From positions 224-64,223 of the forward strand of contig JAYVSL010000025.1 of the NCBI GenBank assembly GCA_043775355.1: 64,000 nucleotides of DNA, written 5' to 3'. Source of the DNA: Planctomycetota bacterium (GTDB taxonomy: Bacteria; Planctomycetota; UBA11346). The notes under the pieces are model-generated. The model had not been told where the DNA came from. It worked only from the letters and a program-made list of their open reading frames with translations, and did not search any database. Made by a program: the position numbers and the translations under genes. Below, one piece after another: positions 5,425 through 59,416 of the stretch (positions are counted from its first letter, which is position 1; each line of letters starts with the position of its first letter).

Positions 5425-5991
5425 ATGGCAACGAGCCGACTTGATTTGGATGCGACTTCCAGCGCGCTGCTGGTCATCGATGTCCAAGAGCGCTTTCTTA
5501 AAGTCGTCCCCGCCATCGCCGCTGATCAGGAGGTTGGTCGCAACTGCCGAATCCTTCTGCAAGCAGCGGGATTATTGCACATTCCCCGATTGATAAGCGA
5601 ACAATATCCCGCCGGTCTTGGCCCCACGTTAGCGCACATCAGCGAAGCAGCGCCAGAGGTCCCTCGCTTAGCCAAGATGCACTTTAGTTGCGCCGAAGAT
5701 CCAGCGATCGCGATCGCGATCGACCAACTTGGCCGTCAGCAATTGGTCATCGCCGGCATCGAAGCCCATGTCTGCATCCTGACCACCGCAGCTGATTTGA
5801 TCTCACGTGGTTACCAAGTCGTCATCGCCGGTGACGCCATCGCGAGCCGCGAACCGAGCCACGTGACGATGGCCATCGCCGCGCTGCGCGACTTGGGAGC
5901 CCTGGTTTTACCGACGGAAACCATCGTCATGCGTTGGCAGCGCGAAGCCGGCGTCGGATGTTTCAAGGCACTCGCTCAGCTGATTCGTTAA
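5425..5991 (+). CDS. isochorismatase-family cysteine hydrolase
   Basis: 188 aa. ALLVIDVQERF near the N-terminus and the IAGIEAHVCI segment are typical of isochorismatase/YcaC-like hydrolases. Confidence 0.8.
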   Translation: MATSRLDLDATSSALLVIDVQERFLKVVPAIAADQEVGRNCRILLQAAGLLHIPRLISEQYPAGLGPTLAHISEAAPEVPRLAKMHFSCAEDPAIAIAIDQLGRQQLVIAGIEAHVCILTTAADLISRGYQVVIAGDAIASREPSHVTMAIAALRDLGALVLPTETIVMRWQREAGVGCFKALAQLIR

Positions 5992-6140
5992 ATGTCTGAT
6001 GTCCGATGTCCGATGTCCGATGTCGTTTTATGCGACGTTGGGCTTAGAGCAGGGATCACTGAACTTAACGGCCCCGTGATGTCGGCGACGAAAATTCTCC
6101 GACATCAGACATCGGACATCGGACATCGGACATTAGACAT
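5992..6140. repeat. inverted arrays of the heptamer ATGTCCG flanking a 74-bp spacer (element copy 1)
   Basis: 5992-6025 reads ATGTCTG ATGTCCG ATGTCCG ATGTCCG ATGTCG. 6100-6140 is the reverse-complement array (CGACATC AGACATC GGACATC GGACATC GGACAT TAGACAT). It fills the whole spacer between two convergent stop codons. Confidence 0.9.
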
Positions 6141-6862
6141 TAGAAGGACGTGAGAAGGGCCATTTCATCCGCCGTGATTTCGCGCATGGTGCCGAGCGCC
6201 AAATCAGCGGGCAATTCCAGGCCGCCAATTTTGTCGCGGTGCAGCTGGATGACCTCGCCGCCTAATTCGGCAATCATGCGCCGGACTTGGTGATAACGAC
6301 CTTCGCTCAAAAAGAGCGTCGCCAAACCCAACCCTTGATGATCATTGCCTTGAAGCTCAAGCCGAGCGGGCAAGGTGGGATTCGGATCGTCACCTAAGGT
6401 CATACCTTTGGCGCAACGTGTCACTGCGTGGTAGGACAATTTACCGCTGTACACAATGCGATAGCGCTTTTCCAAATGACGACGTGGATTCGTCAACGTA
6501 TGAATTAGACCACCATCCGAAGTTATCACTAAAAGCCCGCTGGTATCACGATCGAGTCGACCGGCGCTCTCCAACGACAGATGTTGAAAACTTGCGGGGA
6601 TCAATTCCTCAACCAACGGCGCTTCCTTGGGATCATGACTGCAGGCAAATCCAAGCGGTTTATGCAGTAATAACGTTGCGCCCGCCACGCCGACCACGAC
6701 TTCACGGCGATCGACGGCGATGACTCGGCCATCGATATGTAAACCGTGATTGCGACACACCACGCCATCGACCGACACCCGGCCACGGCGAACTAAATCG
6801 CGTGATTGACTACGGCTACCGAAACCGCGGTGACTGAGAAAGGCGTCAAGTCGAGTGCTCAT
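6140..6862 (-). CDS. rsuA: rRNA pseudouridine synthase, RsuA/RluB family (S4 domain plus catalytic domain)
   Basis: 240 aa. N-terminal S4-like RLDAFLSHRGFGSRSQSRDLVRRGRVSVDG and the catalytic GRLDRDTSGLLV motif. Size fits RsuA. Confidence 0.8.
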   Translation of the reverse strand: MSTRLDAFLSHRGFGSRSQSRDLVRRGRVSVDGVVCRNHGLHIDGRVIAVDRREVVVGVAGATLLLHKPLGFACSHDPKEAPLVEELIPASFQHLSLESAGRLDRDTSGLLVITSDGGLIHTLTNPRRHLEKRYRIVYSGKLSYHAVTRCAKGMTLGDDPNPTLPARLELQGNDHQGLGLATLFLSEGRYHQVRRMIAELGGEVIQLHRDKIGGLELPADLALGTMREITADEMALLTSF

Positions 6863-20069: not shown

Positions 20070-21479
20070 ATGCTGGCTACCCCCCTCACGATTGCGCCGC
20101 TGCCCCGTCCAACGGGTGAAATTGTTTGGCACGTTCCTGGTTCGAAGAGCATCACCAATCGTGCTTACGTTCTGGCGGCGCTATCGCAGGACACGGTATT
20201 ACACAATGTTTTGGAAAGCGATGACACCCAGCGGATGCGCGAATGTCTGGATGGCTTTGGTGTCACCGTCGAATCGCTGAGCGATAACCGCGTGCGTATT
20301 TTAGGCGGGCGTCAGCGGCTGAAAGTTCCGACGCGCTCGTTGTTCGTCGGCAATAGCGGCACGACGGTGCGATTCCTTGCCGGGTTGGCGGCACTGATTC
20401 CTGGGGCAACAACTTTCACCGGCGATCAGCACATGGCTAAGCGCCCAATCGCGGATTTGGTTGATGGGCTGCGACAATTGGGGCTGACGGTTGAGTGCCC
20501 AACGGGTTGTCCGCCATTGACGATTCATGGTGGTCCGATCACGAGCGCTCGCGTGACCATGAATGGTGAAAAGTCGAGTCAGTATTTCACCGCGCTGTTG
20601 TTGTCAGCGGGAATGTTTGATGTCGATTTGGATATTACCGTTGAGGGAACCTTGGTCAGTCGTCCGTACATCGACATGACCATCGCGATGGTACAAACAT
20701 TCGGTGGGAAAATCGACGCCACGACCCATCACTTTCATATTCATGGACGGCGTACCTATGGCATCGGCAGAGATGAAACCACGGTAAACACCACGCCTTC
20801 ATTCGCCATTGAACCGGATGCCTCGTCAGCCAGTTATCCGTTCGCCTTGGCTGCGGCCTTGGGTTTCGCGGTTACGGTCCATGGGCTCGATCAACATTCG
20901 CTGCAAGGCGACATCGGCTTTGTCGAAGTGCTCAAACGAATGGGCGCGACGATCACTCAAGGCCGACTCGCCAACAGTGCGGGGCAAGTCGGAGTTCCTT
21001 TTACCCGCGTCGCAAGCGACAAGCCTCCGCGTGGTGTCGACGTCGATATGCACCATATCAGCGATACGGTGATGACCCTGGCCGCCATCGCGCCGCTGTG
21101 CGAAGGACCAACCACCATCCGTAACGTCGCCAATATTCGCATCAAAGAAACCGATCGCCTGATTGCGACGGTCAACGAATTACGCCGCGTTGGTCAGCAC
21201 GTGGAACACGGCGACGACTGGCTACGCATCACCCCAAGACCGCTGAAACCAGCAACGATTGAGTGCTATAGCGATCACCGCATGGCGATGAGCTTTGCCA
21301 TTTTGGCCGCCGCCGCGCGCGATCATCATTGGGACTCCACCGTGCCCGCATCCCAACGCACCATCCGCATCGCCGACCCCGCATGCACCGCGAAAACGTA
21401 CCCAGGATTCTGGGACGATCTCTTCTTGTTGTCCGATGTCCGATGTCCGATGTCCGATGTCTTTCATACGGACGTTTGA
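20070..21479 (+). CDS. aroA: 3-phosphoshikimate 1-carboxyvinyltransferase (EPSP synthase)
   Basis: VPGSKSITNRAYVLAAL, GNSGTTVRFL and KETDRL motifs. I start at ATG 20070 (MLATPLTIAPL), because the 78 upstream codons overlap glnD antisense. The last ~17 codons are encoded by the heptamer repeat element. Confidence 0.9.
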   Translation: MLATPLTIAPLPRPTGEIVWHVPGSKSITNRAYVLAALSQDTVLHNVLESDDTQRMRECLDGFGVTVESLSDNRVRILGGRQRLKVPTRSLFVGNSGTTVRFLAGLAALIPGATTFTGDQHMAKRPIADLVDGLRQLGLTVECPTGCPPLTIHGGPITSARVTMNGEKSSQYFTALLLSAGMFDVDLDITVEGTLVSRPYIDMTIAMVQTFGGKIDATTHHFHIHGRRTYGIGRDETTVNTTPSFAIEPDASSASYPFALAAALGFAVTVHGLDQHSLQGDIGFVEVLKRMGATITQGRLANSAGQVGVPFTRVASDKPPRGVDVDMHHISDTVMTLAAIAPLCEGPTTIRNVANIRIKETDRLIATVNELRRVGQHVEHGDDWLRITPRPLKPATIECYSDHRMAMSFAILAAAARDHHWDSTVPASQRTIRIADPACTAKTYPGFWDDLFLLSDVRCPMSDVFHTDV

Positions 21480-21596
21480 CCAGATCATTCACATTGGTTC
21501 CTCGAAAAAAATCAGACCGATTCGAAAATGACCCAATGACCCCAACCAAATCCCGCAGCACAAGACCTCGGACATCGGACATCGGACATCGGACAT
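21430..21596. repeat. inverted arrays of the heptamer ATGTCCG flanking a 107-bp spacer (element copy 2)
   Basis: 21430-21461 reads TGTCCG (ATGTCCG)x3 ATGTC. 21569-21596 reads (CGGACAT)x4, perfectly complementary. The spacer start TTTCATACGGACGTTTG resembles copy 1 (TTTTATGCGACGTTGGG). Confidence 0.9.
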
Positions 21597-37336: not shown

Positions 37337-37412
37337 GCTCCCATCGTCTAGAGGCCTAGGACAACGGGTTCTCATCTCGTGAACGCGAGTTCGAATCTCG
37401 CTGGGAGTACCA
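37337..37412 (+). tRNA. tRNA-Glu (anticodon CUC)
   Basis: Hand-folded cloverleaf. Acceptor GCTCCCA/TGGGAGT. D arm GTCT-AGAGGCCTA-GGAC, identical in pattern to the bacterial tRNA-Glu D arm. Anticodon stem ACGGG/CTCGT with loop TT-CTC-AT. T arm GCGAG-TTCGAAT-CTCGC. Encoded ACCA end. 76 nt. Confidence 0.9.
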
Positions 37413-37455
37413 AACGACCACACCCACGGAAAATTCCGTGGGTGTGGTCGTTTTT
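37413..37455. terminator. strong rho-independent terminator after tRNA-Glu, also placed to stop the convergent Calx-beta gene
   Basis: AACGACCACACCCACGG-aaaatt-CCGTGGGTGTGGTCGTT, a perfect 17-bp stem, then TTT. It starts right after the tRNA CCA. The convergent - strand gene stops at 37470. Confidence 0.85.
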
Positions 37456-37469
37456 ACAAGTCAGAAGAT

Positions 37470-44044: not shown

Positions 44045-45610
44045 TTAGCGGGGTGTAACTGCTGCCGCTGGAACCGTTGCGGGCTGAACCGCTGGCGCTG
44101 CTGCTGCTGGCGCTGCCTGCGCTTGCATGCCGCTGCCTTTGGTCAACGAATTCGGCCACGCGATCAACAACACCACGGCGATTGCCGCGCTCGCCAATGA
44201 CCAGCGTGCCAACATTGGCGTCGGCGCGATGGCTGGCTCTTTGTTGGTCGCCGCCCACAGCGCGACAATCATGCGAATGTAATACGCCGCGCCGACCACC
44301 GCCATCACCATGGCGAAGATCGCGATCATCATTTTGCCCTTCGCTACCAAGTCAGCAAAAATCAAAAACTTACCGAGAAAACCAACCGTTGGTGGAATGC
44401 CAGCGATGGAAATCAAGAACACCGTCAGCACTAAACCATAGAACGGTTGAGCACGGCCCTGGCCGGCCAAACCACTCAAGCTGTCGCCCTGATCATCTTT
44501 ACCCGAAATCGCCGCAAAGGCAGACAACGCACCTGCCGTCGCGATGGCGTAACCGACCAGATAGAACCACAGGCTGCCAAGCTGTAAACGTTCGCCGACG
44601 CCAATGGGAAGAGCGAGCGCCAACATCATGTAACCGCCGTGCGCAATCGAGCTGTACGCGACGATGCGACGAGCACTGGTTTGCTTGAGGGCACTGAAAT
44701 TTCCGAGCACTAAACTCAGCAGGCCAAGCACCAAAAACGCGAGATTTAATTTTTCTAATTTATCAACTCCACCAGCCGTGAGTGTTACCGCATCGCCAAG
44801 GTTCAGGACGCCGCCGTTGTGCGTACCGCTCATCACCGCAGCCAAGTTGAGCCAAATAGCGCCGAGAGCAGCAAAGCCGCCAACTTTAATGACAGCGCCC
44901 ATGAAACCGGTGACAGCAATCGGTGCGCCAGTGTAAGCGTCCGGGGCCCAGAAGTGGAACGGCACGACGCCCACTTTGAACAGCAGACCGATGATCATCA
45001 GCACTTGACCAAACTGCAAAAGATTCGCGTGTTGAGCATCGATCGGAGCATGACCAAACGCGGTGAAACCCGTGGCTCCGTAGGTCAGCGCCGAACCATA
45101 CAGAAAGATCGCGCTGAACACGGAACCCATGACAAAATATTTAAACAACGCCTCGTTCGATTCTGGACGCGTACGGCGCAAGCCAACCATGGCATAGATC
45201 GACAGTGACGCGAGTTCGATGCCGACGAACAACGCCAGGCTGTCATTCGCCATGGTCATGATCAGCGCGCCAATCGTGGCGAGCAACGTCAGTGCATAAG
45301 CTTCGCCACCTGGATATTCGTCACGACCAAGACTTTGCTGCATGCCCGCTATGGAACACAACGCCGCAGCTAAAATGGCTTCGCACAACCACATCCGCGA
45401 GTGGTCCATCGCCAGGATGCCATGCAAATGACCGGGCTCAGCGAACGCCTGGACCACGCCAGCGAGAACCAAAAAGGCGGCACTCAACCAAGGAATCAAC
45501 GCATGCTTCGTTGCCCGTTGCAAAAACGGTTCGAAGCCCAGGGAGACCAAGGCGCCGATGAGCACCAATGTCAGCGGCAAAAGCAGCAGGAAAAGGTCGG
45601 CGGTGGGCAT
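44045..45610 (-). CDS. nuoN: NADH-quinone oxidoreductase subunit N
   Basis: 521 aa, polytopic antiporter-like subunit. Last gene of the nuo cluster. Typical FKVGVVPFHFWAPDAY motif. Ala/Pro-rich C-terminal tail. Confidence 0.9.
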   Translation of the reverse strand: MPTADLFLLLLPLTLVLIGALVSLGFEPFLQRATKHALIPWLSAAFLVLAGVVQAFAEPGHLHGILAMDHSRMWLCEAILAAALCSIAGMQQSLGRDEYPGGEAYALTLLATIGALIMTMANDSLALFVGIELASLSIYAMVGLRRTRPESNEALFKYFVMGSVFSAIFLYGSALTYGATGFTAFGHAPIDAQHANLLQFGQVLMIIGLLFKVGVVPFHFWAPDAYTGAPIAVTGFMGAVIKVGGFAALGAIWLNLAAVMSGTHNGGVLNLGDAVTLTAGGVDKLEKLNLAFLVLGLLSLVLGNFSALKQTSARRIVAYSSIAHGGYMMLALALPIGVGERLQLGSLWFYLVGYAIATAGALSAFAAISGKDDQGDSLSGLAGQGRAQPFYGLVLTVFLISIAGIPPTVGFLGKFLIFADLVAKGKMMIAIFAMVMAVVGAAYYIRMIVALWAATNKEPAIAPTPMLARWSLASAAIAVVLLIAWPNSLTKGSGMQAQAAPAAAAPAVQPATVPAAAVTPR

Positions 45611-45614
45611 GGTA

Positions 45615-47225
45615 TCAGGGGCTCACAGATGGGACGGCCGCAGGAGCGGTCGCAGGAATGGCAGTGGACTTGGCAGCCGACGCTTTGGCTGGATCAGCTT
45701 TAGAGGCTTCAGCTTTGGCAGTAACAGCCTTGGCAGTAACAGCTTTAGCTTTGGCCGCAGCTGCCTCTTTGGCCAGTTCAATCACGACCGGGACGGCTTG
45801 GTCATTGATGGGTTTTGGGTAAAAACCAAAGACAAAACTCAGCAACAACAGCGGCACCACCGCCAGCACTTCGCTGGCGCTGAGATCTGGCAAGCGATCA
45901 AGGCTAGGATGGCGTTTGCCATACAACCAGCGCTGGACCACCCGCAGCAAGTAAACCGCGCCCAAGATAACCGATAAGCCAGCGATCACGGCGACGGTGA
46001 AACCCAGGCCGAGGTAGCTGCCGAACAACAACATAAATTCGCCAATGAAGTTCGCGGTTCCTGGCAGAGCAGCCGAAGCCAGAGCCGTGACCACGAACAA
46101 CAACGCGAAAATCGGCGTGCGTCCAGCCAGCCCACCAAAATCATCCAAGCCACGGCTGGAAGTACGGGCTTCCATATATCCCACCAATAAGAACAGCGCC
46201 GCGACCGACAATCCGTGCGCCACCATTTGCAACGGCACACCGGCCAACGCTGCTGAATGGAAACTGAAAATGCCGACCATCACCAAGCTCAAATGGCTCA
46301 GACTCGAAAATGCGATCATGCGTTTGATGTCGTCCTGGGCCATGGCGACCAACGCGCCACCAACGACGCCGATCAAACCGAGCACCACGAACACGCTGGA
46401 GTATTCCACGCACATCGCGGGAAACATCGGCAGAACGAAGCGCAGAAAGCCGTAAACACCAATCTTGGCCATCGCACCAGCCAACAGCACCGCGCCACCG
46501 GCAGGAGTTTCGCTGTAGGTTTTGGCCTGCCACGAATGGAAAGGCACCAACGGAACTTTTACCGCGAATGCGAGCACGAAAGAAAGGAACAAACACAATT
46601 CGCCCTGGGCGGTCAACTGACCCGACGCCCGCAGGCCTGGTAAATCAGTGATGATGCGTGCGAGCTCGGTTGAGCCGGTCTTCCATGCCAACCACCAAAT
46701 GGCGACCAACATGAAGATCGAACCGAACATGGTGTACAGAAAGAACCATAACGACGCGCTGCGGCGTTCGGCACCGCCGAATATCGCAATCAACACCACC
46801 ATCGGCACCAGCATGGCTTCAAAGAAGAGGTAGAAGAGCACCAAATCGCGCGACAACAGCGCGCCAATCATCAACGCTTCCATGATCAATACCGCGCTGA
46901 CGAAATCGCGCATGCGCTCGCCAACTAACTTGCGGCTGCCAAGAATTGCTATCGGCGTCAACCACGTCACCAGCTGAATAAGCCAGGCGCTAAGACCATC
47001 GCTCGCCAGATGCAAGTGCACCGTGGCGTTCGTGCCCCACAGGGTGAACCACGGTAAGCTGGCGTCCAACCCTGGCATGCAGGTCACCAGCGGCAGCCCC
47101 AACAGGGCGACCATGAGGGAAAGCAAGAAGCCGACGCGAAAACTTGATTCGCCATCTTTGCCAGAGGCGAAGACGGTAATCAGAGCGGCAACAAGCGGCG
47201 CAACGAGTAAAGCGTAGAGGAGCAT
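45615..47225 (-). CDS. nuoM: NADH-quinone oxidoreductase subunit M
   Basis: 536 aa. AFAVKVPLVPFHSWQAKTYSETP is typical of NuoM/ND4. It has a C-terminal Ala/Lys-rich repeat tail (AKAKAVTAKAVTAKAEASKA...). Confidence 0.9.
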   Translation of the reverse strand: MLLYALLVAPLVAALITVFASGKDGESSFRVGFLLSLMVALLGLPLVTCMPGLDASLPWFTLWGTNATVHLHLASDGLSAWLIQLVTWLTPIAILGSRKLVGERMRDFVSAVLIMEALMIGALLSRDLVLFYLFFEAMLVPMVVLIAIFGGAERRSASLWFFLYTMFGSIFMLVAIWWLAWKTGSTELARIITDLPGLRASGQLTAQGELCLFLSFVLAFAVKVPLVPFHSWQAKTYSETPAGGAVLLAGAMAKIGVYGFLRFVLPMFPAMCVEYSSVFVVLGLIGVVGGALVAMAQDDIKRMIAFSSLSHLSLVMVGIFSFHSAALAGVPLQMVAHGLSVAALFLLVGYMEARTSSRGLDDFGGLAGRTPIFALLFVVTALASAALPGTANFIGEFMLLFGSYLGLGFTVAVIAGLSVILGAVYLLRVVQRWLYGKRHPSLDRLPDLSASEVLAVVPLLLLSFVFGFYPKPINDQAVPVVIELAKEAAAAKAKAVTAKAVTAKAEASKADPAKASAAKSTAIPATAPAAVPSVSP

Positions 47226-47245
47226 CTGGGGCTATCCGCGGGCGG

Positions 47246-49363
47246 TCAGAAAAGGAATTCGAGGAGCAAAAAGATAATCGCTACGCCGACAGCCGTCAGG
47301 CCGACGACCCAAGCGAGTGGTCCGGTGAGCAATAACAGTGACACCAAGCCAACCGCACCAGAGGTGCTTAAGGCCAGCGAACTGCGCAAACGTGGACGTT
47401 GAATGCTGGTGTAGCCATCACCCAAAAAGCGTGCGACATCGGCGGTCAAACCAACGACGCCAGCAACCAGGGCATCGACAATCCAGGCCATGATCCAGGC
47501 AATAATTTTCGTCGGCAGGATAACGATAACGTGATAAACGCGATCGAAACCCCAGGTCCACCACGCCGCGAAGCCGACCAAATCTTTTTCGCTGCTGTCG
47601 ACGTGACCACGGCGCCAGATGAGGAAGGCGACGATCAGTCCGGCCACAGCCGCGAGCAGTCCGGCAAGCATCGGCCAGAGCGAGCCGTGACCATGTTCAG
47701 CAGCGGCAACCACAGCGGCGCCATGCGCAGCAGGCTGATGCAGGAACGCTTGAGCGTCTCCAAGGATCGGCTTCAGATACGATTCAAACGCATGGGTACC
47801 AAAATTGATCTGCTCCAACAGCGGTGACCACAACACGCCCACCACCAAACTGCCGAACCCGAGAATGGCGATCGGAATCAGCATGGTCGCTGGTGATTCG
47901 TGCACCTTGCCCTTCACCTCATCGCTGTGACGCGCGGGACTCCAAAAAGTTAGATACATCACCCGACTCATGTAAATCGCAGTCACCAAAGCCACGATCA
48001 CTGCGACCACGCCGATGAACGGAGCAAAACCATGGCCCTCAAACAAACGCTCCAAAATTAAATCTTTGGAGAAGAAGCCGGAACCGAGGGGCAGACCAAT
48101 GATCGCGTACCAGCCGAAGAAGAAACACGCATGAGTAATGGGCATGAGTTTGGTCAACCCACCCATCCGGCGCATGTCTTGTTCGTGATGCAAACCATGG
48201 ATCACGGAACCCACTGAAAGGAACAACGTCGCTTTGAAGAACGCGTGCGTGAAGACATGGAACAAGGCGACATCAAACGCGCCAACGCCACACGCCATGA
48301 ACATGAAACCGAGTTGACTGACCGTCGAATACGCGAGTGCCTTCTTGATGTCCAACTGCACCAGGCCAGCGATCGCACCCCAGGCCGCCGTCAAGCAACC
48401 GACTACTAACACCACATCTAAAGGTGTTAGACCAAAAAATACCGGTGCAGAAGCGTGCACAAAAACATCTGACAAACGCGCCAACAAATAAACGCCAGAC
48501 GTCACCATGGTGGCGGCATGAATCAACGCCGACACCGGAGTCGGACCAGCCATGGCATCTGGCAGCCACGTCACCAAAGGAATCTGCGCACTTTTGCCGG
48601 TGCAGCCTAAGAACAACAGCAAGCAGGCGGCGCCCAACAAACCCGCGCTGGCTGACATCAGCGGAATATTTTCCGTCGCTTGAAACCACACCGCGATGTC
48701 GTGGTAATGCATGCTTCCTTGGCCATTACTGTTCATCACCACATACAGCGCAAAAGCGCCGAGCAGGAATCCAAGGTCACCAATGCGATTCACGATAAAG
48801 GCTTTGCGCGCAGCGTCGTTGTATTCGTTGTTCTGATGCCAGAAACCGATCAGCAAGTAAGAACACATACCCACGCCTTCCCAGCCCAAGAAGGTCATCG
48901 GCAAGCTGTCGCCAATGACCAAAATGATCATCGAAAACATGAATAGATTGAGGTAAGCCATGAATCGCGCAAAGCCGCGATCCTCCCACATATAGCCAAC
49001 CGAATAGAGATGAATCAGCGTACCGATGCCGGTTATGAAGAGCAGCATCATGCTGGTCAGGCGATCGAACATCAAACCGGCCGTCAGCGAGAAAGAAAAG
49101 CTATCCGACTTGAAGGCAATCCACTCCCATAAATTTTGTGTCAGTGAAACATTGCCAGGTGTAGCAACGCTGCTGAGTTTTATTGCCGCGATCACCGCGA
49201 TCACAAATGCCAGACCCGGCATCAATACGGCAATCACCGAGACAAATGCACGACTCGGACCGTACGCACTGCGCGCACCGCCCAGACTTAAAGCGCCATT
49301 CAGGATGGCACCCAGCAATGGCAGAAAAGGAATGAGCCAGAGCAGCTCGAACGTAACTTTCAC
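47246..49363 (-). CDS. nuoL: NADH-quinone oxidoreductase subunit L
   Basis: 705 aa. GKSAQIPLVTWLPDAMAGPTPVSALIHAATMVTSG is the NuoL/ND5 signature. C-terminal lateral-helix region is present. Confidence 0.9.
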   Translation of the reverse strand: MKVTFELLWLIPFLPLLGAILNGALSLGGARSAYGPSRAFVSVIAVLMPGLAFVIAVIAAIKLSSVATPGNVSLTQNLWEWIAFKSDSFSFSLTAGLMFDRLTSMMLLFITGIGTLIHLYSVGYMWEDRGFARFMAYLNLFMFSMIILVIGDSLPMTFLGWEGVGMCSYLLIGFWHQNNEYNDAARKAFIVNRIGDLGFLLGAFALYVVMNSNGQGSMHYHDIAVWFQATENIPLMSASAGLLGAACLLLFLGCTGKSAQIPLVTWLPDAMAGPTPVSALIHAATMVTSGVYLLARLSDVFVHASAPVFFGLTPLDVVLVVGCLTAAWGAIAGLVQLDIKKALAYSTVSQLGFMFMACGVGAFDVALFHVFTHAFFKATLFLSVGSVIHGLHHEQDMRRMGGLTKLMPITHACFFFGWYAIIGLPLGSGFFSKDLILERLFEGHGFAPFIGVVAVIVALVTAIYMSRVMYLTFWSPARHSDEVKGKVHESPATMLIPIAILGFGSLVVGVLWSPLLEQINFGTHAFESYLKPILGDAQAFLHQPAAHGAAVVAAAEHGHGSLWPMLAGLLAAVAGLIVAFLIWRRGHVDSSEKDLVGFAAWWTWGFDRVYHVIVILPTKIIAWIMAWIVDALVAGVVGLTADVARFLGDGYTSIQRPRLRSSLALSTSGAVGLVSLLLLTGPLAWVVGLTAVGVAIIFLLLEFLF

Positions 49364-49367
49364 CGGT

Positions 49368-49688
49368 CTACTCCTTCATGTCCGCGAAGGCATCGCTGTC
49401 GAGCGACTCGCGGCCACGGACGATGCAGATCACCATCGCGAGACCGACACAGGCCTCCGATGCGGCGATGGCAATGATAAAAATTGGCGTCATCTGACCG
49501 AACAGCGAAGCGCTGCCGGCAAATTCACGACTGAAACCGATGAAGCTCAGATTGACTGCGTTGAGCATCAATTCGATGCCCATCAACAAAAGAAAAACGT
49601 TTCGGCGGGTCAACGCGACAGCGAGCCCCAAACAAAACAGCACGGCAGCGACCACCTGCACGTCGCTCAGCGCGATGTAATTCATCAT
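49368..49688 (-). CDS. nuoK: NADH-quinone oxidoreductase subunit K
   Basis: 106 aa, three TM helices. GIELMLNAVNL and AAAEACVGLA-type motifs. Confidence 0.9.
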   Translation of the reverse strand: MMNYIALSDVQVVAAVLFCLGLAVALTRRNVFLLLMGIELMLNAVNLSFIGFSREFAGSASLFGQMTPIFIIAIAASEACVGLAMVICIVRGRESLDSDAFADMKE

Positions 49689-50506
49689 GAGTGATGCCCT
49701 TCTTCATGCGCAGGCTCGGTCGGCGGGCGACTTGCCAGCGAGCGCTTCGCCAACACCACCGCGCCGACCACCGCTGCCAGTAAAACCACGCCGATCAATT
49801 CGAAGAGAATATAAAAACCAGAACTCTGTGGGCGAATGTCAAACATCGCCGCCGACAACAGCGCAATTTCTCCGCGCGGCACCGCAACAGCGCGGAAGGT
49901 CACCGCAGCACTGCCACTGCGCTCTTTTGAACCGCTGATGGTGAGCTTCGCCGTATAGGTTCCTGTCGGTGCATCGTACGCATGACGGACTTCACGGCCG
50001 TTGGCGGTATTCTTGTCACCAAAATCCCACGAATACGTCGCGCCTTCGCCAGCATCCACCGCTGCGAAATGAACATTGGCCGTACTTTGATCCGATAGTG
50101 GTCGCTCAATCAAACCAGCTTTGTCATCACGTACGAACGCTGGTTTGGTGGCACTCAATGAGGTCGCCACTAACGCGGCACCGAGTACCACTGGTAACGC
50201 GAGTGCGGTAAGGCTGAACCAATCAAACACAGGAATACGATGCTCTTTGGCCTGGTTCAAAACCATGATAACGAACACCACCAACATCATCACCGCACCC
50301 GCGTAAACCAATACTTGCAGCACCGCTAAGAACGGACTGTTCAGCAAGGCGTAGATGCCAGACATGCTGAGCATCACGCCGATCAAATAGATCGCACCGT
50401 TGATCGGATGGCGCGCCAACAGCAGGCCAAGACCGCAAAAAATAGCGATACCGGCAAACAGCCAGAAATAGGCGGGACCTAAGATTGCGTCGAGCGAGTG
50501 GAACAT
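49685..50506 (-). CDS. nuoJ: NADH-quinone oxidoreductase subunit J carrying an inserted PKD-like domain
   Basis: 273 aa. Position between nuoI and nuoK, and a TM1-3 pattern like NuoJ/ND6. Between the fourth and last helices lies VHFAAVDAGEGATYSWDFGDKNTANGREVRHAYDAPTGTYTAKLTISG, a PKD-domain signature. Confidence 0.85.
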   Translation of the reverse strand: MFHSLDAILGPAYFWLFAGIAIFCGLGLLLARHPINGAIYLIGVMLSMSGIYALLNSPFLAVLQVLVYAGAVMMLVVFVIMVLNQAKEHRIPVFDWFSLTALALPVVLGAALVATSLSATKPAFVRDDKAGLIERPLSDQSTANVHFAAVDAGEGATYSWDFGDKNTANGREVRHAYDAPTGTYTAKLTISGSKERSGSAAVTFRAVAVPRGEIALLSAAMFDIRPQSSGFYILFELIGVVLLAAVVGAVVLAKRSLASRPPTEPAHEEGHHS

Positions 50507-50523
50507 GGCGTTTCGTGGTCGAA

Positions 50524-50586
50524 TGTGGACGAAGAAGCGGACAAGGAAGCGGACGAAGAAGCGGACGAAGAAGCGGACAAAGAAGC
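50524..50586. repeat. tandem 12-bp repeat (GAAGCGGACRAR, about 5 units) filling the nuoI-nuoJ spacer
   Basis: GTGGACGAA GAAGCGGACAAG GAAGCGGACGAA GAAGCGGACGAA GAAGCGGACAAA GAAGCA, read directly from the + strand. Confidence 0.9.
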
Positions 50587-50603
50587 AAAACTCTTATGAG
50601 TGT

Positions 50604-51179
50604 TTAGTGGTACGTTCCAGATTTGAATTCTTCAAGCGCTTGGGCGTTCAGCGAACCGCCTGGCGCTTTCTGACTCTGGAGATCATCCGCCGGATATTCC
50701 GACGGCTTCCATTCCATCATGGACTCGCGATTGATAACAAAATCGGCGCGGTTGTCGCCCGCCATCACGGCTTGACGAGTGTCCATGCGAATCGCATCGC
50801 ACGGGCACGCTTCAACGCAGTACCCGCAGAACACGCACAACAACAAATCGATTTCAAAACGCACTGGGCGTTTTTCGATATGCATGTCAGGTGATTCTTC
50901 AGCGACGATGTTGATGCAGCGCGCGGGACAGGCGGTCGAGCACATGAAACAAGCCACGCAGCGGGGACTGCCATCGGGGCGTTTCATCAGGCGGTGGCGG
51001 GCGCGGTAATCACGCGGCAGATCAGGTTGTTGCTCAGGATAATTGAGCGTTGGGAATTTGGTTATGCCGCTCAAATTGCGCACCGCGTGGCCCATGGTCG
51101 TCGCTAGACCTTTGAAGATCTCGACGAAATAGAGCTGTTCCCAGAAAGTGAGATTGGGACGAGGGATTACTTTCGCCAT
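50604..51179 (-). CDS. nuoI: NADH-quinone oxidoreductase subunit I (2x[4Fe-4S] ferredoxin-type)
   Basis: 191 aa. CVACFMCSTACPARCI and CVFCGYCVEACPCDAI cluster motifs. Confidence 0.9.
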   Translation of the reverse strand: MAKVIPRPNLTFWEQLYFVEIFKGLATTMGHAVRNLSGITKFPTLNYPEQQPDLPRDYRARHRLMKRPDGSPRCVACFMCSTACPARCINIVAEESPDMHIEKRPVRFEIDLLLCVFCGYCVEACPCDAIRMDTRQAVMAGDNRADFVINRESMMEWKPSEYPADDLQSQKAPGGSLNAQALEEFKSGTYH

Positions 51180-51186
51180 GGTCGAC

Positions 51187-52623
51187 CTACTTCACTAACT
51201 TGGCGATGAGCGCGGTAACCAGCAGGTTTACCAACGCGATGTTGAGCATGACCTTCCAGCCGAGTGCCATGATCTGGTCATAGCGGAAACGCGGCAGGGT
51301 CCAACGCACCCAGACGAACAACCAGGCTACCGCCAAGGTCTTGCCCAGCACGATGTGCAATTGGATGACTGCGGTGACTAAGCTGACCCACAGCGGATAA
51401 ATTGGCTTCGCTTCATAGACTGCACCCGACAGCGGCGTCGGCCCGCCCAACGCGAAAGCCAGCGCACCGCCAGCCACCGAAAGAATCGCCAGGAACATAA
51501 ATAGTCCTGAAAAGAGCGAGAATTCTTTCACGCGCTCAGCTTTGTCGCTGACCGGCAAGGCAGCGTACGCTTTTTTATGCACGCTCACCAAATGACTCAT
51601 AAGGAACAGCACGGCGGCACCAATGAATAAGAACACGCCACCGACTTGGCCCAAATGCGCCTGAATCCACGCAGTATCGAGCACCACCCACTGCAAACCT
51701 ACACTTGCACCGGCTGCGTCGAGGGCACCGAAGGACGGCACCGGAATAGGGAACGGCGCCAAGCTATAACCACCAAGGTACAAGGTCGAAATCAACGCTG
51801 ACGCCAGCAAGACGTGCAAGTATTCCGCGGTCATAAACATCATGAATTTCGACGACGCGAATTCGGTATGGAAACCCGCGACCAATTCAGAGTCACCTTC
51901 GGCGACGTCGAAAGGAGTACGATTGCACTCGGCAAACATCGAGACCAAGAACAGCGCAAAACCAACGGGCTGGACGATAATGCCCCACGCGTGCGTGGTC
52001 TGCCATTCAACGATGCGGGTCAGACTAAAATCGCCGACCAATAAAATCAGGCCAAGCACCGACAAGCCCATACTGACTTCGTAACTGATCATCATTGCCG
52101 AAGCGCGCAGGCCGCCGAGCAAAGAGAATTTCGAATTCGACGCCCATGAACCCAGCACCACGCCATAAACTGACAACGAACCAATCGCAAAGGTCAGTAA
52201 AAGTCCAGCATTCAGATCAAAGACCTGACCACTGATCACTTGCAGCGGACCGCCCTCTGGCTGATGAACGATCGGAGCAAACCACGGCAACGCGGCCGGA
52301 GTCAAAATTGCCGTCACCACCGGAATCGCAGGCGCCAAGATGTACCACCATTTGTGAGCGAACGGCGCGGTGAAACTTTCCTTGAACAACAACTTCACGG
52401 CATCAGCAAGGTTGAAGACCATGCCAAATCCGCGCAACTTCAACCCACCAGAAAACGGAATGGGTATGGCTGCACGATTGGGACCCGGACGATCTTGAAT
52501 GATCGCGGCGCCACGCCGTTCGATGAGAACGAGCAACGGCAAGACCTGGAAAAGCAGGGCGAAAATCAGCACCGGTTTGAGCAGAGTCAGGATGACGTCG
52601 AAATTCAGAATGAGGAAATCCAC
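51187..52623 (-). CDS. nuoH: NADH-quinone oxidoreductase subunit H (unusually long)
   Basis: 478 aa. AECNRTPFDVAEGDSELVAGFHTEF and WVRWTLPRFRYDQ are NuoH/ND1 signatures. About 120 extra residues lie between them. Confidence 0.9.
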   Translation of the reverse strand: MDFLILNFDVILTLLKPVLIFALLFQVLPLLVLIERRGAAIIQDRPGPNRAAIPIPFSGGLKLRGFGMVFNLADAVKLLFKESFTAPFAHKWWYILAPAIPVVTAILTPAALPWFAPIVHQPEGGPLQVISGQVFDLNAGLLLTFAIGSLSVYGVVLGSWASNSKFSLLGGLRASAMMISYEVSMGLSVLGLILLVGDFSLTRIVEWQTTHAWGIIVQPVGFALFLVSMFAECNRTPFDVAEGDSELVAGFHTEFASSKFMMFMTAEYLHVLLASALISTLYLGGYSLAPFPIPVPSFGALDAAGASVGLQWVVLDTAWIQAHLGQVGGVFLFIGAAVLFLMSHLVSVHKKAYAALPVSDKAERVKEFSLFSGLFMFLAILSVAGGALAFALGGPTPLSGAVYEAKPIYPLWVSLVTAVIQLHIVLGKTLAVAWLFVWVRWTLPRFRYDQIMALGWKVMLNIALVNLLVTALIAKLVK

Positions 52624-52625
52624 GT

Positions 52626-54284
52626 TCAGGCTCCTGCCGTCACTGGCTGTTGAGCCGCGACGTTCTGATCAATGGAGCAGCCCATGGGGCCGATGGAGCG
52701 GTACGTCATGCCAGCGAATTGCGGCACCCGTGCTTGAGCCGCTTTCCACGCGTCAACTTCTGACGTCCAGCTCAGCGCCTTCGTGCCTGCGGATGATAAT
52801 CCCACCAGTACCGACCACGCTGCTTCCAATTGCGAGTTCGGCACCACCGGGCAAGCCTGCAATAACTGCACGACGCCGTTGACATTCACCATGCTGCCGC
52901 GCACTTCTGCCCACGCACGAATACCAATCGCGATGGTGGCTTTGGCCACGGTCTGATCGACCCAGGACGACAAGACGATACGCGTTGGGATCACTTCGAG
53001 CTTCGCTGCTTTATCAGCATTCGCCGCCCACAGATCGTGACCGACGACCACTAAGGCATCGAATTCTTTCGCCTTAGCGACCAACTCATCAAGGTTGTCC
53101 TTGATGCTGAGCAGCGTCACACCTTTGCGATTCGCCACCGGATCGCCGCTCAGCGCGATGCCATCCGCCTTGCCAACCGTCAGCCATGAGCCACCGAAAA
53201 CTTCGGCCTTGGCACCGAGCGATTCCGCCAACGCCATCGCAGCGATATTGTCTTCCGTGGTCAAATGCCCACTGGCGACAATCGCCACGCGCTTCGCGTT
53301 CTTCAGCGCAACTACGGCGGCAGCCTGGGCTTCATCGATGGTGCAATCGACTCCGGCTTTTTTGCCGTCGGTCAGACGATTGACTGCCAACTGCTGATAC
53401 AGCATACGCGTGCGATTGGCGATCCAGCTTTTGTTCACGTTCGGATTACGGCGCGGCATCAAACGCCACACCTTGCCGCCTTGCGAACCAGAAATGTTAT
53501 AATCGATGGTCAGGTTCGCGCCGAGCGCATCGCTGGGATCAATCGACTCCACGCTCTTGAGCATCCATACGCGCTGTTGAAAGCGGAAATGTTTGCCGGT
53601 CAACGCGCCGACTGGGCAAATGTCGGTGGTGTTCAAATCATATTCATGATTCAACGGTTCATCAGGGAAGGTCGTCAGATACGCGTGATCACCACGGCCA
53701 GCGATGTCGAGCTGCGGTGACTTCGCCACGTCGCTCATGAAACGGACGCAACGCGTGCAAATAATGCAGCGTTCTTGATCGAGTACGATGCTCGGTCCGA
53801 GATCGATTTTCTTGCCGCCGCGCTCATGACCTTTGCTGTCGACGAAACGATGATCGGCACCGCCTTTGTATTGCTTTCCGACCGAGTCATCGAGTCGGCT
53901 CTCATGCTTGCCTTGACCCATGTAGTGCTCTTGCAGCGTGCACTCACCGGCTTTATCGCAAATCGGGCAATCGAGCGGATGATTGACCAACAAAAATTCC
54001 ATCACGCCTTTGCGCAGCTTGACGATTTTTTCGCTGCTGATCTGCGTACGGACTTTCATCCCAGGCGCGGTCTGCATGTGGCATGAAATGCCCAACGCAA
54101 ATCCACGCGGACCTTCGACCTCAACCAAGCAAATGCGGCAATTGCCCGCGACCTTGAGATCTTGGTGATAACAAAAGGCGGGCGTCTCGGTCTGAGCCGG
54201 GCCGCGCAGCGCTTCAATCAGCTGAACGCGAGGCGGAACCTGCACGTCTTTGCCGTCAACATTGATCGTGATGGTATCAGACAT
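52626..54284 (-). CDS. nuoG: NADH-quinone oxidoreductase subunit G
   Basis: N-terminal 2Fe-2S ferredoxin part (ITINVDGKDVQV...CYHQDLKVAGNCRICLVEV), then HPLDCPICDKAGECTLQ and CIICTRCVRF clusters. I start at ATG 54284 (MSDTITINVDG). The track start 54350 lies inside the repeat spacer. Confidence 0.85.
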   Translation of the reverse strand: MSDTITINVDGKDVQVPPRVQLIEALRGPAQTETPAFCYHQDLKVAGNCRICLVEVEGPRGFALGISCHMQTAPGMKVRTQISSEKIVKLRKGVMEFLLVNHPLDCPICDKAGECTLQEHYMGQGKHESRLDDSVGKQYKGGADHRFVDSKGHERGGKKIDLGPSIVLDQERCIICTRCVRFMSDVAKSPQLDIAGRGDHAYLTTFPDEPLNHEYDLNTTDICPVGALTGKHFRFQQRVWMLKSVESIDPSDALGANLTIDYNISGSQGGKVWRLMPRRNPNVNKSWIANRTRMLYQQLAVNRLTDGKKAGVDCTIDEAQAAAVVALKNAKRVAIVASGHLTTEDNIAAMALAESLGAKAEVFGGSWLTVGKADGIALSGDPVANRKGVTLLSIKDNLDELVAKAKEFDALVVVGHDLWAANADKAAKLEVIPTRIVLSSWVDQTVAKATIAIGIRAWAEVRGSMVNVNGVVQLLQACPVVPNSQLEAAWSVLVGLSSAGTKALSWTSEVDAWKAAQARVPQFAGMTYRSIGPMGCSIDQNVAAQQPVTAGA

Positions 54285-54296
54285 GAATGGCTCCGA

Positions 54297-54404
54297 GCTT
54301 CGCTCGTGAAGCTGCGAGCTTCGAGCTACGCGCTTCAAGTTGAAAAACAAAACGCAGATTGGTCGCTGGAGAGACTCGCAGCTCGCAGCTCGTTGCTCGT
54401 AGCT
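54297..54404. repeat. inverted heptamer arrays (AGCTGCG family) in the nuoF-nuoG spacer
   Basis: + strand 54310-54344 reads AGCTGCG AGCTTCG AGCTACG CGCTTCA AGTTGAA. 54375-54404 reads CTCGCAG CTCGCAG CTCGTTG CTCGTAG CT (complementary orientation). About 30 nt lie between them. Confidence 0.85.
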
Positions 54405-54410
54405 TATTCC

Positions 54411-55757
54411 TCACCAGAACGCTCCTGGGCGCTGAGTCACCAGATCGCGCGCCGTGGCGTGCTCAGGATTCTGATCGATATAACGCTGAAAGTGTTCGCG
54501 ATACTTGGCGATGAAACTTTGCACCGGCCACGCCGCACCAGGCGCGAAAGCGCAGATGGTGGTCCATTCATAACTATCGGCGAGGTCTTTGATCAGGTCG
54601 ATGTCGCCATCTCGTCCTTTACCATCAATCACTTTATCGAGTACACGATCGACATAGCCAGTGCCTTCACGGCACGGCGTGCACTGACCGCAAGATTCAT
54701 GAGCATAGAATCGCGCGATGGTTTGCAAAAATTTCGGTACATCGGTGGTGGTATTGAATGGCGTGATCGCGCCAGAACCAAGCATCGACTTCAAAGCCGC
54801 CAAGGATTCATAATCGAGCGTCGCTTTGCGAGTTTCGTCGGCCGTCAAGACTGGCGCCGAAGAACCGCCAGGAATACAGCCGAGCAATTCACCCTTCAAA
54901 CCGCCGCACAATTCGAAGAACTCCGAGTACGACATGCCGAGCGGCACTTCATAGACGCCGGGTTTCACAATATCGCCACTGATCGAAAACAATTTCGAGC
55001 CGGGGCTCTTATCGGTACCAAATTGACGGTACCCCTTTGCGCCATGCTTCAAAATGTATGGCACCGCCATAATCGTTTCGACGTTATTGACCACCGTCGG
55101 AGAAGCGAACGCGCCGCTTACTGCGGGGAATGGTGGCTTCAAACGTGGTTGGCCTTTGAAGCCTTCCAGCGAATTGATCAAGCCAGTTTCTTCACCACAG
55201 ATGTACGCACCAGCGCCGCGATGGACGTAGATGTCGAGCGAATATTGCGAGCCGCCGATGTTTTCACCGAGCAGGCCAGCAGCGTACGCTTCTTTGATCG
55301 CATCGTTCAAACGAGTGATTTGCGGCAGCATTTCGCCGCGCACATAAATATATGCCGTGCGTACGCCCAATGCGTAGCCGGTAATAATCATCCCTTCGAG
55401 CAGCAAGTGCGGATCGCGTTCCATGCACATGCGATCTTTGAAGGTGCCAGGCTCGCCTTCGTCGGCGTTAATAACCAAATACACAGGCTTACCCGTGCCA
55501 CGTGGCACGAAAGACCACTTCATGCCGGTGGGAAATCCCGCACCGCCACGACCGCGCAGGCCGGAATCTTTGACCAACTCAATCAGCTCAAGCTGGCTCT
55601 TATCAAACAGCATCGGCCCAACGGTGTCGTAGGCGCCGTGTTGTTTCGCGACCGCCAAGGTGTGGCCATTATCGACCTGGAACAACCGGCTGAGAATGCG
55701 CGGCAGTTCTTTGCCTTTCCAATGCGTCGGCTGAGGAAATCCGTGGAGCGTGGTCAT
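54411..55757 (-). CDS. nuoF: NADH-quinone oxidoreductase subunit F
   Basis: 448 aa. GLRGRGGAGFPTGMKW (FMN/NADH site) and ESCGQCTPCREG (N3 cluster) motifs. Confidence 0.95.
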   Translation of the reverse strand: MTTLHGFPQPTHWKGKELPRILSRLFQVDNGHTLAVAKQHGAYDTVGPMLFDKSQLELIELVKDSGLRGRGGAGFPTGMKWSFVPRGTGKPVYLVINADEGEPGTFKDRMCMERDPHLLLEGMIITGYALGVRTAYIYVRGEMLPQITRLNDAIKEAYAAGLLGENIGGSQYSLDIYVHRGAGAYICGEETGLINSLEGFKGQPRLKPPFPAVSGAFASPTVVNNVETIMAVPYILKHGAKGYRQFGTDKSPGSKLFSISGDIVKPGVYEVPLGMSYSEFFELCGGLKGELLGCIPGGSSAPVLTADETRKATLDYESLAALKSMLGSGAITPFNTTTDVPKFLQTIARFYAHESCGQCTPCREGTGYVDRVLDKVIDGKGRDGDIDLIKDLADSYEWTTICAFAPGAAWPVQSFIAKYREHFQRYIDQNPEHATARDLVTQRPGAFW

Positions 55758-55759
55758 GA

Positions 55760-56812
55760 TCAGACCTTAGCCGGCGTAGCGGCGGTGGCTGGCGGAGGCG
55801 TAGCTTTACCAGTAGCAGTAATCGCCGCACTTGGACGCGCAACGCGTTCCTTTTCGTGCGCGATAACGCGATATTGAGCGCTGACACCTTCAGGTAATTT
55901 ATCGGCAGATTTCTGATCTTTCGGACTTGGCGTCGCCAGCTCGCGCCACGACACGCCGTTATCATCCGAACGCTCGACGATGATCGAGGTGCAACCAGGA
56001 TCGTTAATCCAGGTCAGCGCAATCGCTTCACCAGTGACAGCAGCACCAAGTTTCAGCGCCGGAGCTGGTGGGCAGTACGTCGGCGGCAACGTTTTCGCTT
56101 CCGCACCAGGCGCACCGGGATGGCCCTTGGTGTTGAGTACCAAATGACCGACCGCGTCGGGCGTAACGGGCAGCGGCTTGCCAGTGAAACCATTCGCCGT
56201 GGGCGACTTTTTGTGCTCAGCGCGCAAGAAGGCAATCCATTGATCGAGCAACGCGCTGGTCGGATGAAAATCAGGAACTGACAAATGTTCTTCGCTGACT
56301 CCAGCTTTGCCTAATGCATGCGGCTTCGGGCCAATCGCTTGATCATCGATCATCACGCCAGGGCCAGTACCGCAGAGCGCAAGGCATTCAACGCGCACCA
56401 AGGTAAAAAGACCATCGCTGGTGGTTTCGCCACTGTGAACGCCGAGCGATTTTTCCAAATGTTCAATCAGATTTTCACTGCCTTGAATATAGCAGCACAT
56501 GGTCTGACAAATCTGAATCAGGTGCTTACCCGTCGGAACCTGACGATACATGGTGTAAAATTCAGTAACGCCAAAAGCATGCACGTGGCTGACCGCACAC
56601 GTATCAGCCGCCCACTTGATGCCTTCGCGTGGAACCCAGCCGAATTCTTCCTGCACCAACCACAAAGCCTGCAATAAAGCTCCGCGTTTGACCGGGTACC
56701 GACGCCATAGTTCTTCGACTCGCGGCTGGTACTTGGCCATGCGATTCTTCAGCACTTCAGTGGTGAGATCCTTGGGCTGGTGCTCAGCGGGATTTACTGT
56801 GCAACCGCTCAC
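55760..56812 (-). CDS. nuoE: NADH-quinone oxidoreductase subunit E with a ~190-aa C-terminal extension containing an FN3-like module
   Basis: Thioredoxin-like 2Fe-2S part (YPVKRGALLQALWLVQEE...ICQTMCC...VECLALCGTGPGVMID). I start at GTG 56812 (GGAGA 6 nt upstream). The track start 56878 reads through heptamer repeats. ATG 56740 is an alternative. Confidence 0.85.
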   Translation of the reverse strand: MSGCTVNPAEHQPKDLTTEVLKNRMAKYQPRVEELWRRYPVKRGALLQALWLVQEEFGWVPREGIKWAADTCAVSHVHAFGVTEFYTMYRQVPTGKHLIQICQTMCCYIQGSENLIEHLEKSLGVHSGETTSDGLFTLVRVECLALCGTGPGVMIDDQAIGPKPHALGKAGVSEEHLSVPDFHPTSALLDQWIAFLRAEHKKSPTANGFTGKPLPVTPDAVGHLVLNTKGHPGAPGAEAKTLPPTYCPPAPALKLGAAVTGEAIALTWINDPGCTSIIVERSDDNGVSWRELATPSPKDQKSADKLPEGVSAQYRVIAHEKERVARPSAAITATGKATPPPATAATPAKV

Positions 56813-56833
56813 GATTGGTCTCCAAGCAGAAGA

Positions 56834-56988: not shown

Positions 56989-56996
56989 AATTAGAG

Positions 56997-59376: not shown

Positions 59377-59416
59377 GGGTGAATCCTCATGGTGGGAAAA
59401 TAGTCGGTAAAACCGC

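Follow-up and report, generated by a model that had tools for sequence, protein, structure and literature searches.

What is the inverted array of tandem heptamers that lies between two convergent genes of a planctomycete genome, and how did it come to be there? The array belongs to a stretch of 64,000 nucleotides (the window) from Planctomycetota bacterium (assembly GCA_043775355.1, contig JAYVSL010000025.1, positions 224 to 64,223 of the forward strand), in which two blocks of the heptamer ATGTCCG, one the reverse complement of the other, separate an isochorismatase-family gene from rsuA. This region, which we call element 1, is inserted DNA that replaced a 31-nt junction of the two convergent genes, not an old regulatory region. 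It is probably one copy of a lineage-specific, multi-copy foldback repeat, selfish or near-neutral, that spreads or is homogenised through its arms. Comparison with relatives documents insertion, slippage, rules of polarity and end phase, upkeep of the arms against decay of the spacer, and loss of copies.

An inverted heptamer array inserted between convergent genes

Element 1 and its flanks have the following parts.

5425-5991, plus strand: isochorismatase-family gene, left flank; stop codon at 5989-5991
5992-6025, plus strand: left arm, ATGTCTG (ATGTCCG)x3 ATGTCG, beginning right after the isochorismatase stop codon
6026-6099, no strand assigned: spacer (loop), 74 nt, unique and non-repetitive
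6100-6144, plus strand: right arm, CGACATC AGACATC (GGACATC)x2 GGACAT to 6133, then degenerate TAGACAT (6134-6140) and TAGA
6140-6862, minus strand: rsuA, right flank, with S4 and pseudouridine synthase domains; stop codon 6140-6142

The intergenic span between the stop codons of these convergent genes is 5992-6139. A preliminary description of this DNA had reported inverted ATGTCCG arrays around a 74-nt spacer, and the sequence reads exactly so, coordinates included; its title, which had the gap made entirely of arrays, overstated the case, since half of the 148 nt is unique sequence. The double heptamer (a 14-mer, with up to 2 mismatches allowed) has 17 matches in the window; shuffled sequences gave 0.62 on average and 3 at most. 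The same description had the arms pairing with each other, in shifted registers as well, and we found them 94% complementary across 35 nt, with registers offset by 7 also able to pair. The predicted RNA fold of the element has an energy of -92.3 kcal/mol (z = -11.3), and one forward unit within the spacer, GATGTCGG, would pair with the inner end of the right arm. As had been remarked in setting the stem apart from a usual terminator, no T-run follows it on either strand, and no terminator-like site spans the long stem. The spacer had no homolog in the other fetched DNA, apart from the same locus in strain-level contigs.

The rsuA/isochorismatase gene pair is syntenic in relatives, several of which lack the element. 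At 94% RsuA identity it is missing and the two stop codons lie 3 nt apart; at 78% and 71% identity it is missing and the genes overlap by 29 nt. When filled and empty sites are compared, the flanks are ~96% identical right up to the junctions, between which 31 nt have been replaced by ~170 nt. Lost in the exchange were the final eight codons of rsuA, the stop codons of both genes and the 3 nt between them. The isochorismatase stop is TAA in the window and TGA in the empty-site relative, and the degenerate outer units of the right arm provide the rsuA stop (6140-6142) together with part of an altered RsuA C-terminal tail, ALLTSF* as opposed to the ancestral xRMTxVxx* of relatives. We considered an origin of the spacer from the old junction sequence and rejected it, as alignment scores equalled those of shuffles.

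The element also varies within the species. Conspecific contigs that are ~99.7% identical have gaps of 141, 148 or 155 nt at this site, differing by whole heptamers in one arm and by one spacer substitution, and such whole-unit change of arm length is the expected outcome of replication slippage. In a relative at 75% RsuA identity, the same junction (L113 801-973) carries another inverted tandem array, CACAGAGNN, of period 9, in which CCACAGAGG/CGCACAGAG units are paired with CTCTGTGGCCTCTGTGG. The junction thus seems to have been colonised independently in that lineage.

Four elements in the window

Tandem Repeats Finder showed that period 7 prevails among window arrays with at least 3 copies, and all 8 of these period-7 arrays (4.6-6.3 copies, 91-100% match) resolve into four inverted pairs. 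The 64-kb window therefore holds four elements in total, two built from ATGTCCG and two from AGCTNCG, where open reading frame is abbreviated ORF:

21430-21461, plus strand: element 2 left arm, TGTCCGA x4.6, which now codes for the C-terminal tail of the EPSP synthase (AroA) ORF
21462-21563, no strand assigned: element 2 spacer, 102 nt, unique, with the EPSP synthase ORF stop inside it at 21477-21479
21564-21596, plus strand: element 2 right arm, whose final unit GGACATG contains the rsmD start codon (21595)
54299-54404, no strand assigned: element 3, AGCTNCG family, arms ~54310-54336 and 54375-54404, occupying the 126-nt nuoF-nuoG gap of a minus-strand operon
56834-56988, no strand assigned: element 4, AGCTNCG family, right arm 56939-56988, between nuoD and nuoE of a minus-strand operon

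The second copy announced at a distance of 15 kb is present (21430-21461 / 21564-21596). It had also been credited with a related spacer, which we did not find: local alignment of the spacers of elements 1 and 2 gave a score of 14, with shuffles averaging 12.7 (p = 0.31), and spacers are unique to their loci.

All four elements stand at junctions where the genes abut or overlap in relatives, which identifies the elements as insertions. Where elements 3 and 4 are missing, the nuoF/nuoG gap is 1-8 nt and nuoD/nuoE overlap by 4 nt, and the protein ends on both sides of both junctions are conserved in relatives. Element 1 is the sole junction resolved to the nucleotide and has no target-site duplication, nor is one visible at elements 3 and 4. 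The interrupted arrays of elements 3 and 4 were invariant in two conspecific contigs. In element 4, the left arm and 18 nt of spacer are tandemly duplicated with a 48-nt period at 85% match (56834-56930); similar duplications of an arm with its linker occur at L196 724-773, L021 3239-3330 and L043 553-590.

The nuo operon that hosts elements 3 and 4 comprises fourteen genes, nuoA-N (44045-59896), and its junctions are otherwise at most 20 nt, except for nuoI|nuoJ. That junction (97 nt, 50507-50603) holds a direct array of five 12-mers, GCTTCTTCGTCC on the sense strand, at 50527-50586. The 12-mer contains the GTCCG core found in the ATGTCCG heptamer, and the array is not inverted.

Arms persist while spacers decay

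Element 2 allowed us to follow one insertion through several lineages. It is shared at the aroA|rsmD junction with L196, L197, L198 and L201, and is missing in the outgroup L204 (1-nt gap) and in L203, where the gap is 10 nt, GCACTTCCGA. Because L203 is nested among carriers in a neighbour-joining tree, its lack of the element implies loss, and the gap possibly keeps a TCCGA footprint of the lost copy.

Four-fold degenerate sites of rsmD are 0.77 identical between the window and L196, and 0.39-0.46 identical between the window and L197 and L198, near saturation. At that distance the element 2 arms of L197 and L198 still equal the family consensus or depart from it by one position, whereas the spacers are unalignable. 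With the 94% relative, the element 2 spacer could be aligned in its right half alone, and with 80-85% relatives in no part. We infer that slippage within an array cannot alone keep that array at a genome-wide consensus and that a further force is needed, be it selection, inter-locus conversion or re-insertion. Two carriers have changed both arms together: L201 has RGTCCGG in place of ATGTCCG in both, and in L198 one arm has a T-to-G variant whose counterpart stands in the matching unit of the other (ATGGCCG/CGGCCAT).

In the window and in L196 the ancestral AroA tail is deleted and the ORF continues through the left arm. The EPSP synthase ORF (21400-21479) lacks the tail xxYPxxxxPW* of L197, L198, L203 and L204 and reads through the arm instead (…FWDDLFLLSDVRCPMSDVFHTDV*); slippage by one unit in this arm would put the tail out of frame.

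A dispersed family with fixed polarity and end phase

A scan for (ATGTCCG)x3 over one genome per species returned at least 106 loci. Among the matches listed, paired arrays were found in the Planctomycetota metagenome-assembled genomes (MAGs) JACDEI01, JANMYZ01, JANPIY01, CANETI01 and JANPLC01, each a forward array followed 5-169 nt on by a reverse-complement array; (ATGTCCG)x3 in other phyla occurred mostly as lone direct microsatellites. The proposal of a dispersed family is thus borne out by the two ATGTCCG and two AGCTNCG elements of the window and by dozens in related Planctomycetota MAGs. Isolated direct microsatellites, the pattern that would have spoken against such a family, did not prevail in this clade, where among the matches listed 75 of the 106 period-7 arrays at fetched loci have an inverted partner.

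The layout follows strict rules. Neighbouring ATGTCCG pairs of the Planctomycetota MAGs have the ATGTCCG array first in 29/29 cases among the matches listed, with 0 reversed and 0 on the same strand. Across 67 arms, again among the matches listed, the ends are fixed in phase as GTCCG(ATGTCCG)nATGTC, and the commonest arm in these 67 has 3 perfect units plus two partial ones, ~4.4 units. Acidobacteriota MAGs (L028, L034 and L103) show the opposite order, with the CGGACAT array first in 3/3 pairs, so that pair polarity is lineage-specific.

ATGTCCG is one unit among several. The fetched loci hold the further families AGCTNCG, CGTGCGA and RGTCCGG, and an 85% relative carries four pairs within 19 kb whose units all differ: CTACAGG, GGAGCAAC (period 8), GGCTTAA and ATGTCCG. 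Periods of 7, 8 and 9 are all found in relatives; at L198 2023-2110, for example, a period-8 inverted pair reads (GGAGCAAC)x3.5 ... CTCCGTTC x2.5. At L033 2824-2926, a nine-unit ATGTCCG left arm abuts a five-unit GCACGTC array in the right-arm orientation of the CGTGCGA family (L033 7552-7734). No hairpin is possible in this mismatched-family pair, and left/right polarity is still kept.

Spacers show no such order. No spacer-to-spacer match, and no match to other fetched DNA beyond the same locus in conspecific contigs, was found among ~40 elements, ~13 of them from one MAG, a comparison that old copies with decayed spacers could escape, and a start shared by four spacers, TTTTATGCGACGTT, was not significant. 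Spacers are poorer in G+C than their flanks (0.53 vs 0.61) and mostly unstructured. The idea that they are hidden palindromes was rejected, the mean z being ~ -0.9 and L064 alone being clearly palindromic. The genes flanking the elements have no common function, and copies are also found in divergent gene gaps in ORF-based context classes. A link to phages gained no support from 2.9 million viral contigs, which yielded one unrelated lone array.

Inverted heptamer pairs were also seen beside nuoF in distant metagenome nuo loci (L184 635-729 and 3711-3789; L140 1861-1962), with the units AGTGCCT and GAGAATC/GATCGAG. Since these loci are unrelated, the layout recurs in distant bacteria.

Comparison with known repeat systems

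Although we found no published description of such elements in Planctomycetes, the preliminary description's implication that they lack any known counterpart does not hold: inverted pairs of 7-9-nt tandem units are known in Xanthomonas (PMC4692102) and Geobacter metallireducens (PMC2700814). By analogy of layout, the planctomycete elements are the same kind of object as the Xanthomonas inverted heptamer pairs and the Geobacter paired tandem-repeat sites.

In Xanthomonas campestris and X. axonopodis, 186 and 183 GGGAATC heptamer arrays were counted in two genomes (Rehm et al. 2015, PMC4692102). Four units are commonest, ~90% of arrays are intergenic and usually near an ORF end, and 70-75 cases per genome consist of two close arrays on opposite strands for which a stem-loop is possible. 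The unit number varies between species, the arrays are transcribed, neighbouring genes belong to no functional class, and the function is unknown; the authors tied the four-unit preference to G-quadruplexes (PMC4692102). The planctomycete pairs share the head-to-tail heptamers, the ~four units, the dispersal, the mostly intergenic location and the inverted arrangement with stem-loop potential. They differ in belonging to another phylum and in having units, ATGTCCG and AGCTNCG, that contain no G-tracts and cannot form a G-quadruplex. The four-unit preference here is therefore not explicable by G-quadruplex formation; a G-quadruplex unit marks the members in Xanthomonas and Nostoc and is no part of the inverted-pair layout as such. 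PMC4692102 shows neither insertion polymorphism at gene pairs that once abutted nor strict polarity or phase-fixed ends, all of which are shown here.

In Geobacter metallireducens, classes 2 and 3 are sites paired on opposite strands at varying distances, with 3-5 tandem units of 7-9 nt in each site; a further 49 elements consist of GGACCGG repeated four times (Aklujkar et al. 2009, PMC2700814). These paired sites are multi-copy, lie between genes that include operon partners such as proB/proA, and are missing in a sister species; the authors read them, as a guess without a test, as binding sites for regulators of the IHF/HU type (PMC2700814). Opposite-strand pairing is common to both systems, with spacers of 5-169 nt and, in relatives, unit periods of 7, 8 and 9 on our side. 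The unit sequences differ, and the insertion sequences at fixed distance that accompany some Geobacter sites were not seen here. The period-8 pair at L198 2023-2110 resembles TCTCCGTS[Y], the class 2 paired-site consensus (PMC2700814).

Lineage-specific, high-copy intergenic tandem heptamers are also represented by the cyanobacterial short tandemly repeated repetitive sequences (GGGGAYT in Nostoc) and by the TAACTGA repeats of Beggiatoaceae. The latter are nearly all direct and lie just upstream of start codons, with 1 inverted in 170 (PMC4679880). Pairing into hairpins is not what defines the layout of these repeats.

A repetitive extragenic palindromic (REP) unit is an imperfect palindrome of 20-40 nt. 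With REP sequences, and with the bacterial interspersed mosaic elements (BIMEs) and REPINs built from them, which RAYT mobilises, the present elements share short, multi-copy, extragenic inverted doublets that form a hairpin, a spacer less conserved than the arms, location both between convergent genes and within operons, and long persistence. A single arm, however, is no palindrome (its fold of -0.2 to -1.1 kcal/mol does not improve on that of shuffles) and carries neither a GTAG nor a CGTC tag (the arms end GTCCG... / ...ATGTC); arms consist of a variable number of heptamers and spacers are unrelated. Miniature transposable elements of the inverted-repeat type (MITEs) are likewise small, with terminal inverted repeats and presence or absence that differs among relatives, but no target-site duplication was seen at elements 1, 3 and 4, and copies of one genome have no internal sequence in common. 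We also rejected CRISPR arrays, which have at least 3 direct repeats of 24-48 nt with spacers of similar length, as against just two arms that are inverted. The statement that the element matches neither REP/BIME, a classical MITE nor CRISPR thus stands, given non-palindromic arms, no target duplication or shared core, and two inverted arms. Eukaryotic Foldback (FB) transposons have inverted arms of variable-number tandem subrepeats and a heterogeneous middle, and resemble the family in both respects. To our knowledge the planctomycete family has no partner transposase.

Tests for terminators and other RNA signals

Like an intrinsic terminator, element 1 would place a stem-loop directly after stop codons, common to two convergent genes. 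Unlike one, it has a stem of 33-35 bp and a 74-nt loop, compared with 5-20 bp and 3-8 nt. We rejected a canonical intrinsic terminator on the lack of a T-run, the 74-nt loop, and the copies inside the nuo operon and in divergent gaps. Elsewhere in the window a textbook intrinsic terminator (37412-37458) comes immediately after a tRNA (37337-37409); its two halves (37412-37431 / 37434-37453) form a perfect inverted repeat of 20 nt and a T-run follows, so the organism uses canonical terminators that are unlike the heptamer hairpins. Scans of all four elements yielded no site resembling a promoter consensus and, for terminators, only trivial hairpins inside an arm. Rfam 15 at gathering thresholds matched the tRNA alone in the window, and a permissive scan of the region matched only a model for a microRNA precursor, whose gathering score of 59 exceeds the 21.5 bits obtained.

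Weighing the explanations

Could the elements be selected RNA structures, kept for their effect on flanking transcripts as bidirectional terminators independent of a U-tract, or as stabilisers or processing sites (RNase III substrates, for example) at 3' ends and between cistrons? The very stable 33-35-bp stem lies precisely between convergent stop codons, across saturated divergence the arms stay conserved and the spacer can change freely, the two concerted two-arm changes in L198 and L201 preserve pairing, and Xanthomonas repeats are mostly just 3' of ORFs and transcribed (PMC4692102). We nevertheless consider this account unlikely. The T-run that accompanies the organism's canonical terminator is missing, two copies are inside the nuo operon, where termination would harm, and others are in divergent gaps. 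Nor is the sense strand favoured: it is the more stable in 6/17 tandem contexts, and element 4 folds at -60.5 kcal/mol in sense and -83.5 kcal/mol in antisense. Systematic compensatory variation between arms is mostly absent (with the last five elements left out, and with L198 and L201 as exceptions); most internal unit variants are unmirrored, and in some copies (L102, L075, L096) a variant has spread through one entire arm only. A pairing constraint would by itself leave the same heptamer at many loci unexplained, and close relatives lack the element at the same junction. That absence tells also against an array of iterated DNA or RNA sites for a sequence-specific factor, with dimeric or looping binding to account for the inverted layout. 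The proposed factors are a nucleoid-associated or global regulator, as for Geobacter (PMC2700814), or an RNA-binding protein, as for TAACTGA (PMC4679880). Such binding would suit the retention of one heptamer at many loci and in different species in the face of saturated neutral divergence, the narrow arm length of ~4.4 units and the fixed polarity. But one genome carries several unrelated families of periods 7, 8 and 9 (ATGTCCG, AGCTNCG, CGTGCGA, GGCTTAA, CTACAGG, GGAGCAAC), for which many factors would be needed, the flanking genes have no common function and no candidate protein was identified, all of which makes the proposal distinctly improbable.

An immobile and functionless by-product of mutation, in which arrays grow locally by slippage and gain an inverted partner by template switching in a quasi-palindrome, would draw on processes that have left their mark here: slippage is evident at element 1, variants homogenise within an arm, and segments of arm and spacer are duplicated locally. 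Heptamer repeats are moreover over-represented in many bacteria, which has been ascribed to polymerase slippage. Independent births, however, would not yield one heptamer with one end phase and 29:0 polarity at dozens of loci in several species; empty sites of 0-10 nt make arms and spacer all new DNA, and arms hold the family consensus past neutral saturation. We judge this origin very improbable. Contigs of related MAGs often break at arrays, as might happen with an assembly error, yet the same structure occurs in independent ENA, Logan, JGI and NCBI assemblies and shuffles never came near the observed counts, which leaves artefact or chance low-complexity coincidence a negligible prospect.

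We therefore return to the foldback repeat, selfish or near-neutral, as the probable identity of the region. The arms of such a repeat would mediate its spread or homogenisation, whether through non-autonomous transposition that leaves no target duplication or through recombination or conversion that the arms direct, and copies would persist chiefly at gene boundaries, where coding sequence is left unbroken. A transcript across it would fold into a ~33-bp stem at the shared 3' ends of convergent mRNAs, or between nuo cistrons. That stem could slow 3' exonucleases, form a site for a double-strand RNase or affect translational coupling, and would not be a canonical intrinsic terminator.

Several points count against this assignment. 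The 64 kb of this genome and the samples of related MAGs that were searched hold no donor with a matching spacer, so that whole-element transposition is not demonstrated. No transposase or other enzyme is tied to the family, no whole-window Pfam search for transposases having been made. Selfish upkeep explains the conservation of the arms past neutral saturation no better than a selected function would, and the mirrored ATGGCCG/CGGCCAT change of L198 and the RGTCCGG arms of L201 suggest that pairing itself may matter. The intergenic context classes were built on crude ORF calls, and every RNA-level statement on the elements is one that we infer.

A more specific proposal, which we hold to be rather unlikely, is that a dedicated DNA process, polar and sequence-specific, uses or produces the arms and creates intergenic DNA at gene junctions. 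For example, a single-strand hairpin transposase (HUH/Y1 type) could act on ends made of tandem heptamers, or an activity directed at ends could add repeats or carry out repair. This process would make sense of the 29:0 polarity and phase-fixed ends, of a small deletion at the target with no duplication there, of the unique filler spacers and of the L033 2824-2926 locus, whose mixed-family abutment is the oddest single observation in its favour. If it existed, it would uncouple translationally coupled genes and rewrite gene termini, and could be the common cause of the excess of ~four-unit heptamer repeats across bacterial phyla.

Significance and practical effects

Short heptamer arrays, often of four units and often inverted, have been noted in Xanthomonas, Nostoc and Geobacter, with their origin and function unexplained. 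The G-quadruplex explanation meets a clean counter-example in the planctomycete family, in which layout and unit number are the same and the unit lacks G-tracts. Any model has to accommodate insertion at abutting or overlapping junctions (two of them in the nuo operon), remodelled gene ends (the tails of RsuA and AroA and the start codon of rsmD), fixed polarity and end phase, arms kept past neutral saturation as spacers decay, loss with a possible footprint, and a switch of heptamer family at one locus. The family is real, striking and well delimited, and its non-G-rich unit and clear insertion history make it a useful test case; present sequence evidence establishes no functional role for the elements.

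The repeats also degrade metagenome assembly and annotation, as contig breaks and over-extended ORFs attest. Short-read contigs often end in or beside arrays (the end of L110, and L008, L018, L024, L053, L089, L095 and others), and gene callers run ORFs through them, as in a 63-aa 'gene' called over element 4 in L199.

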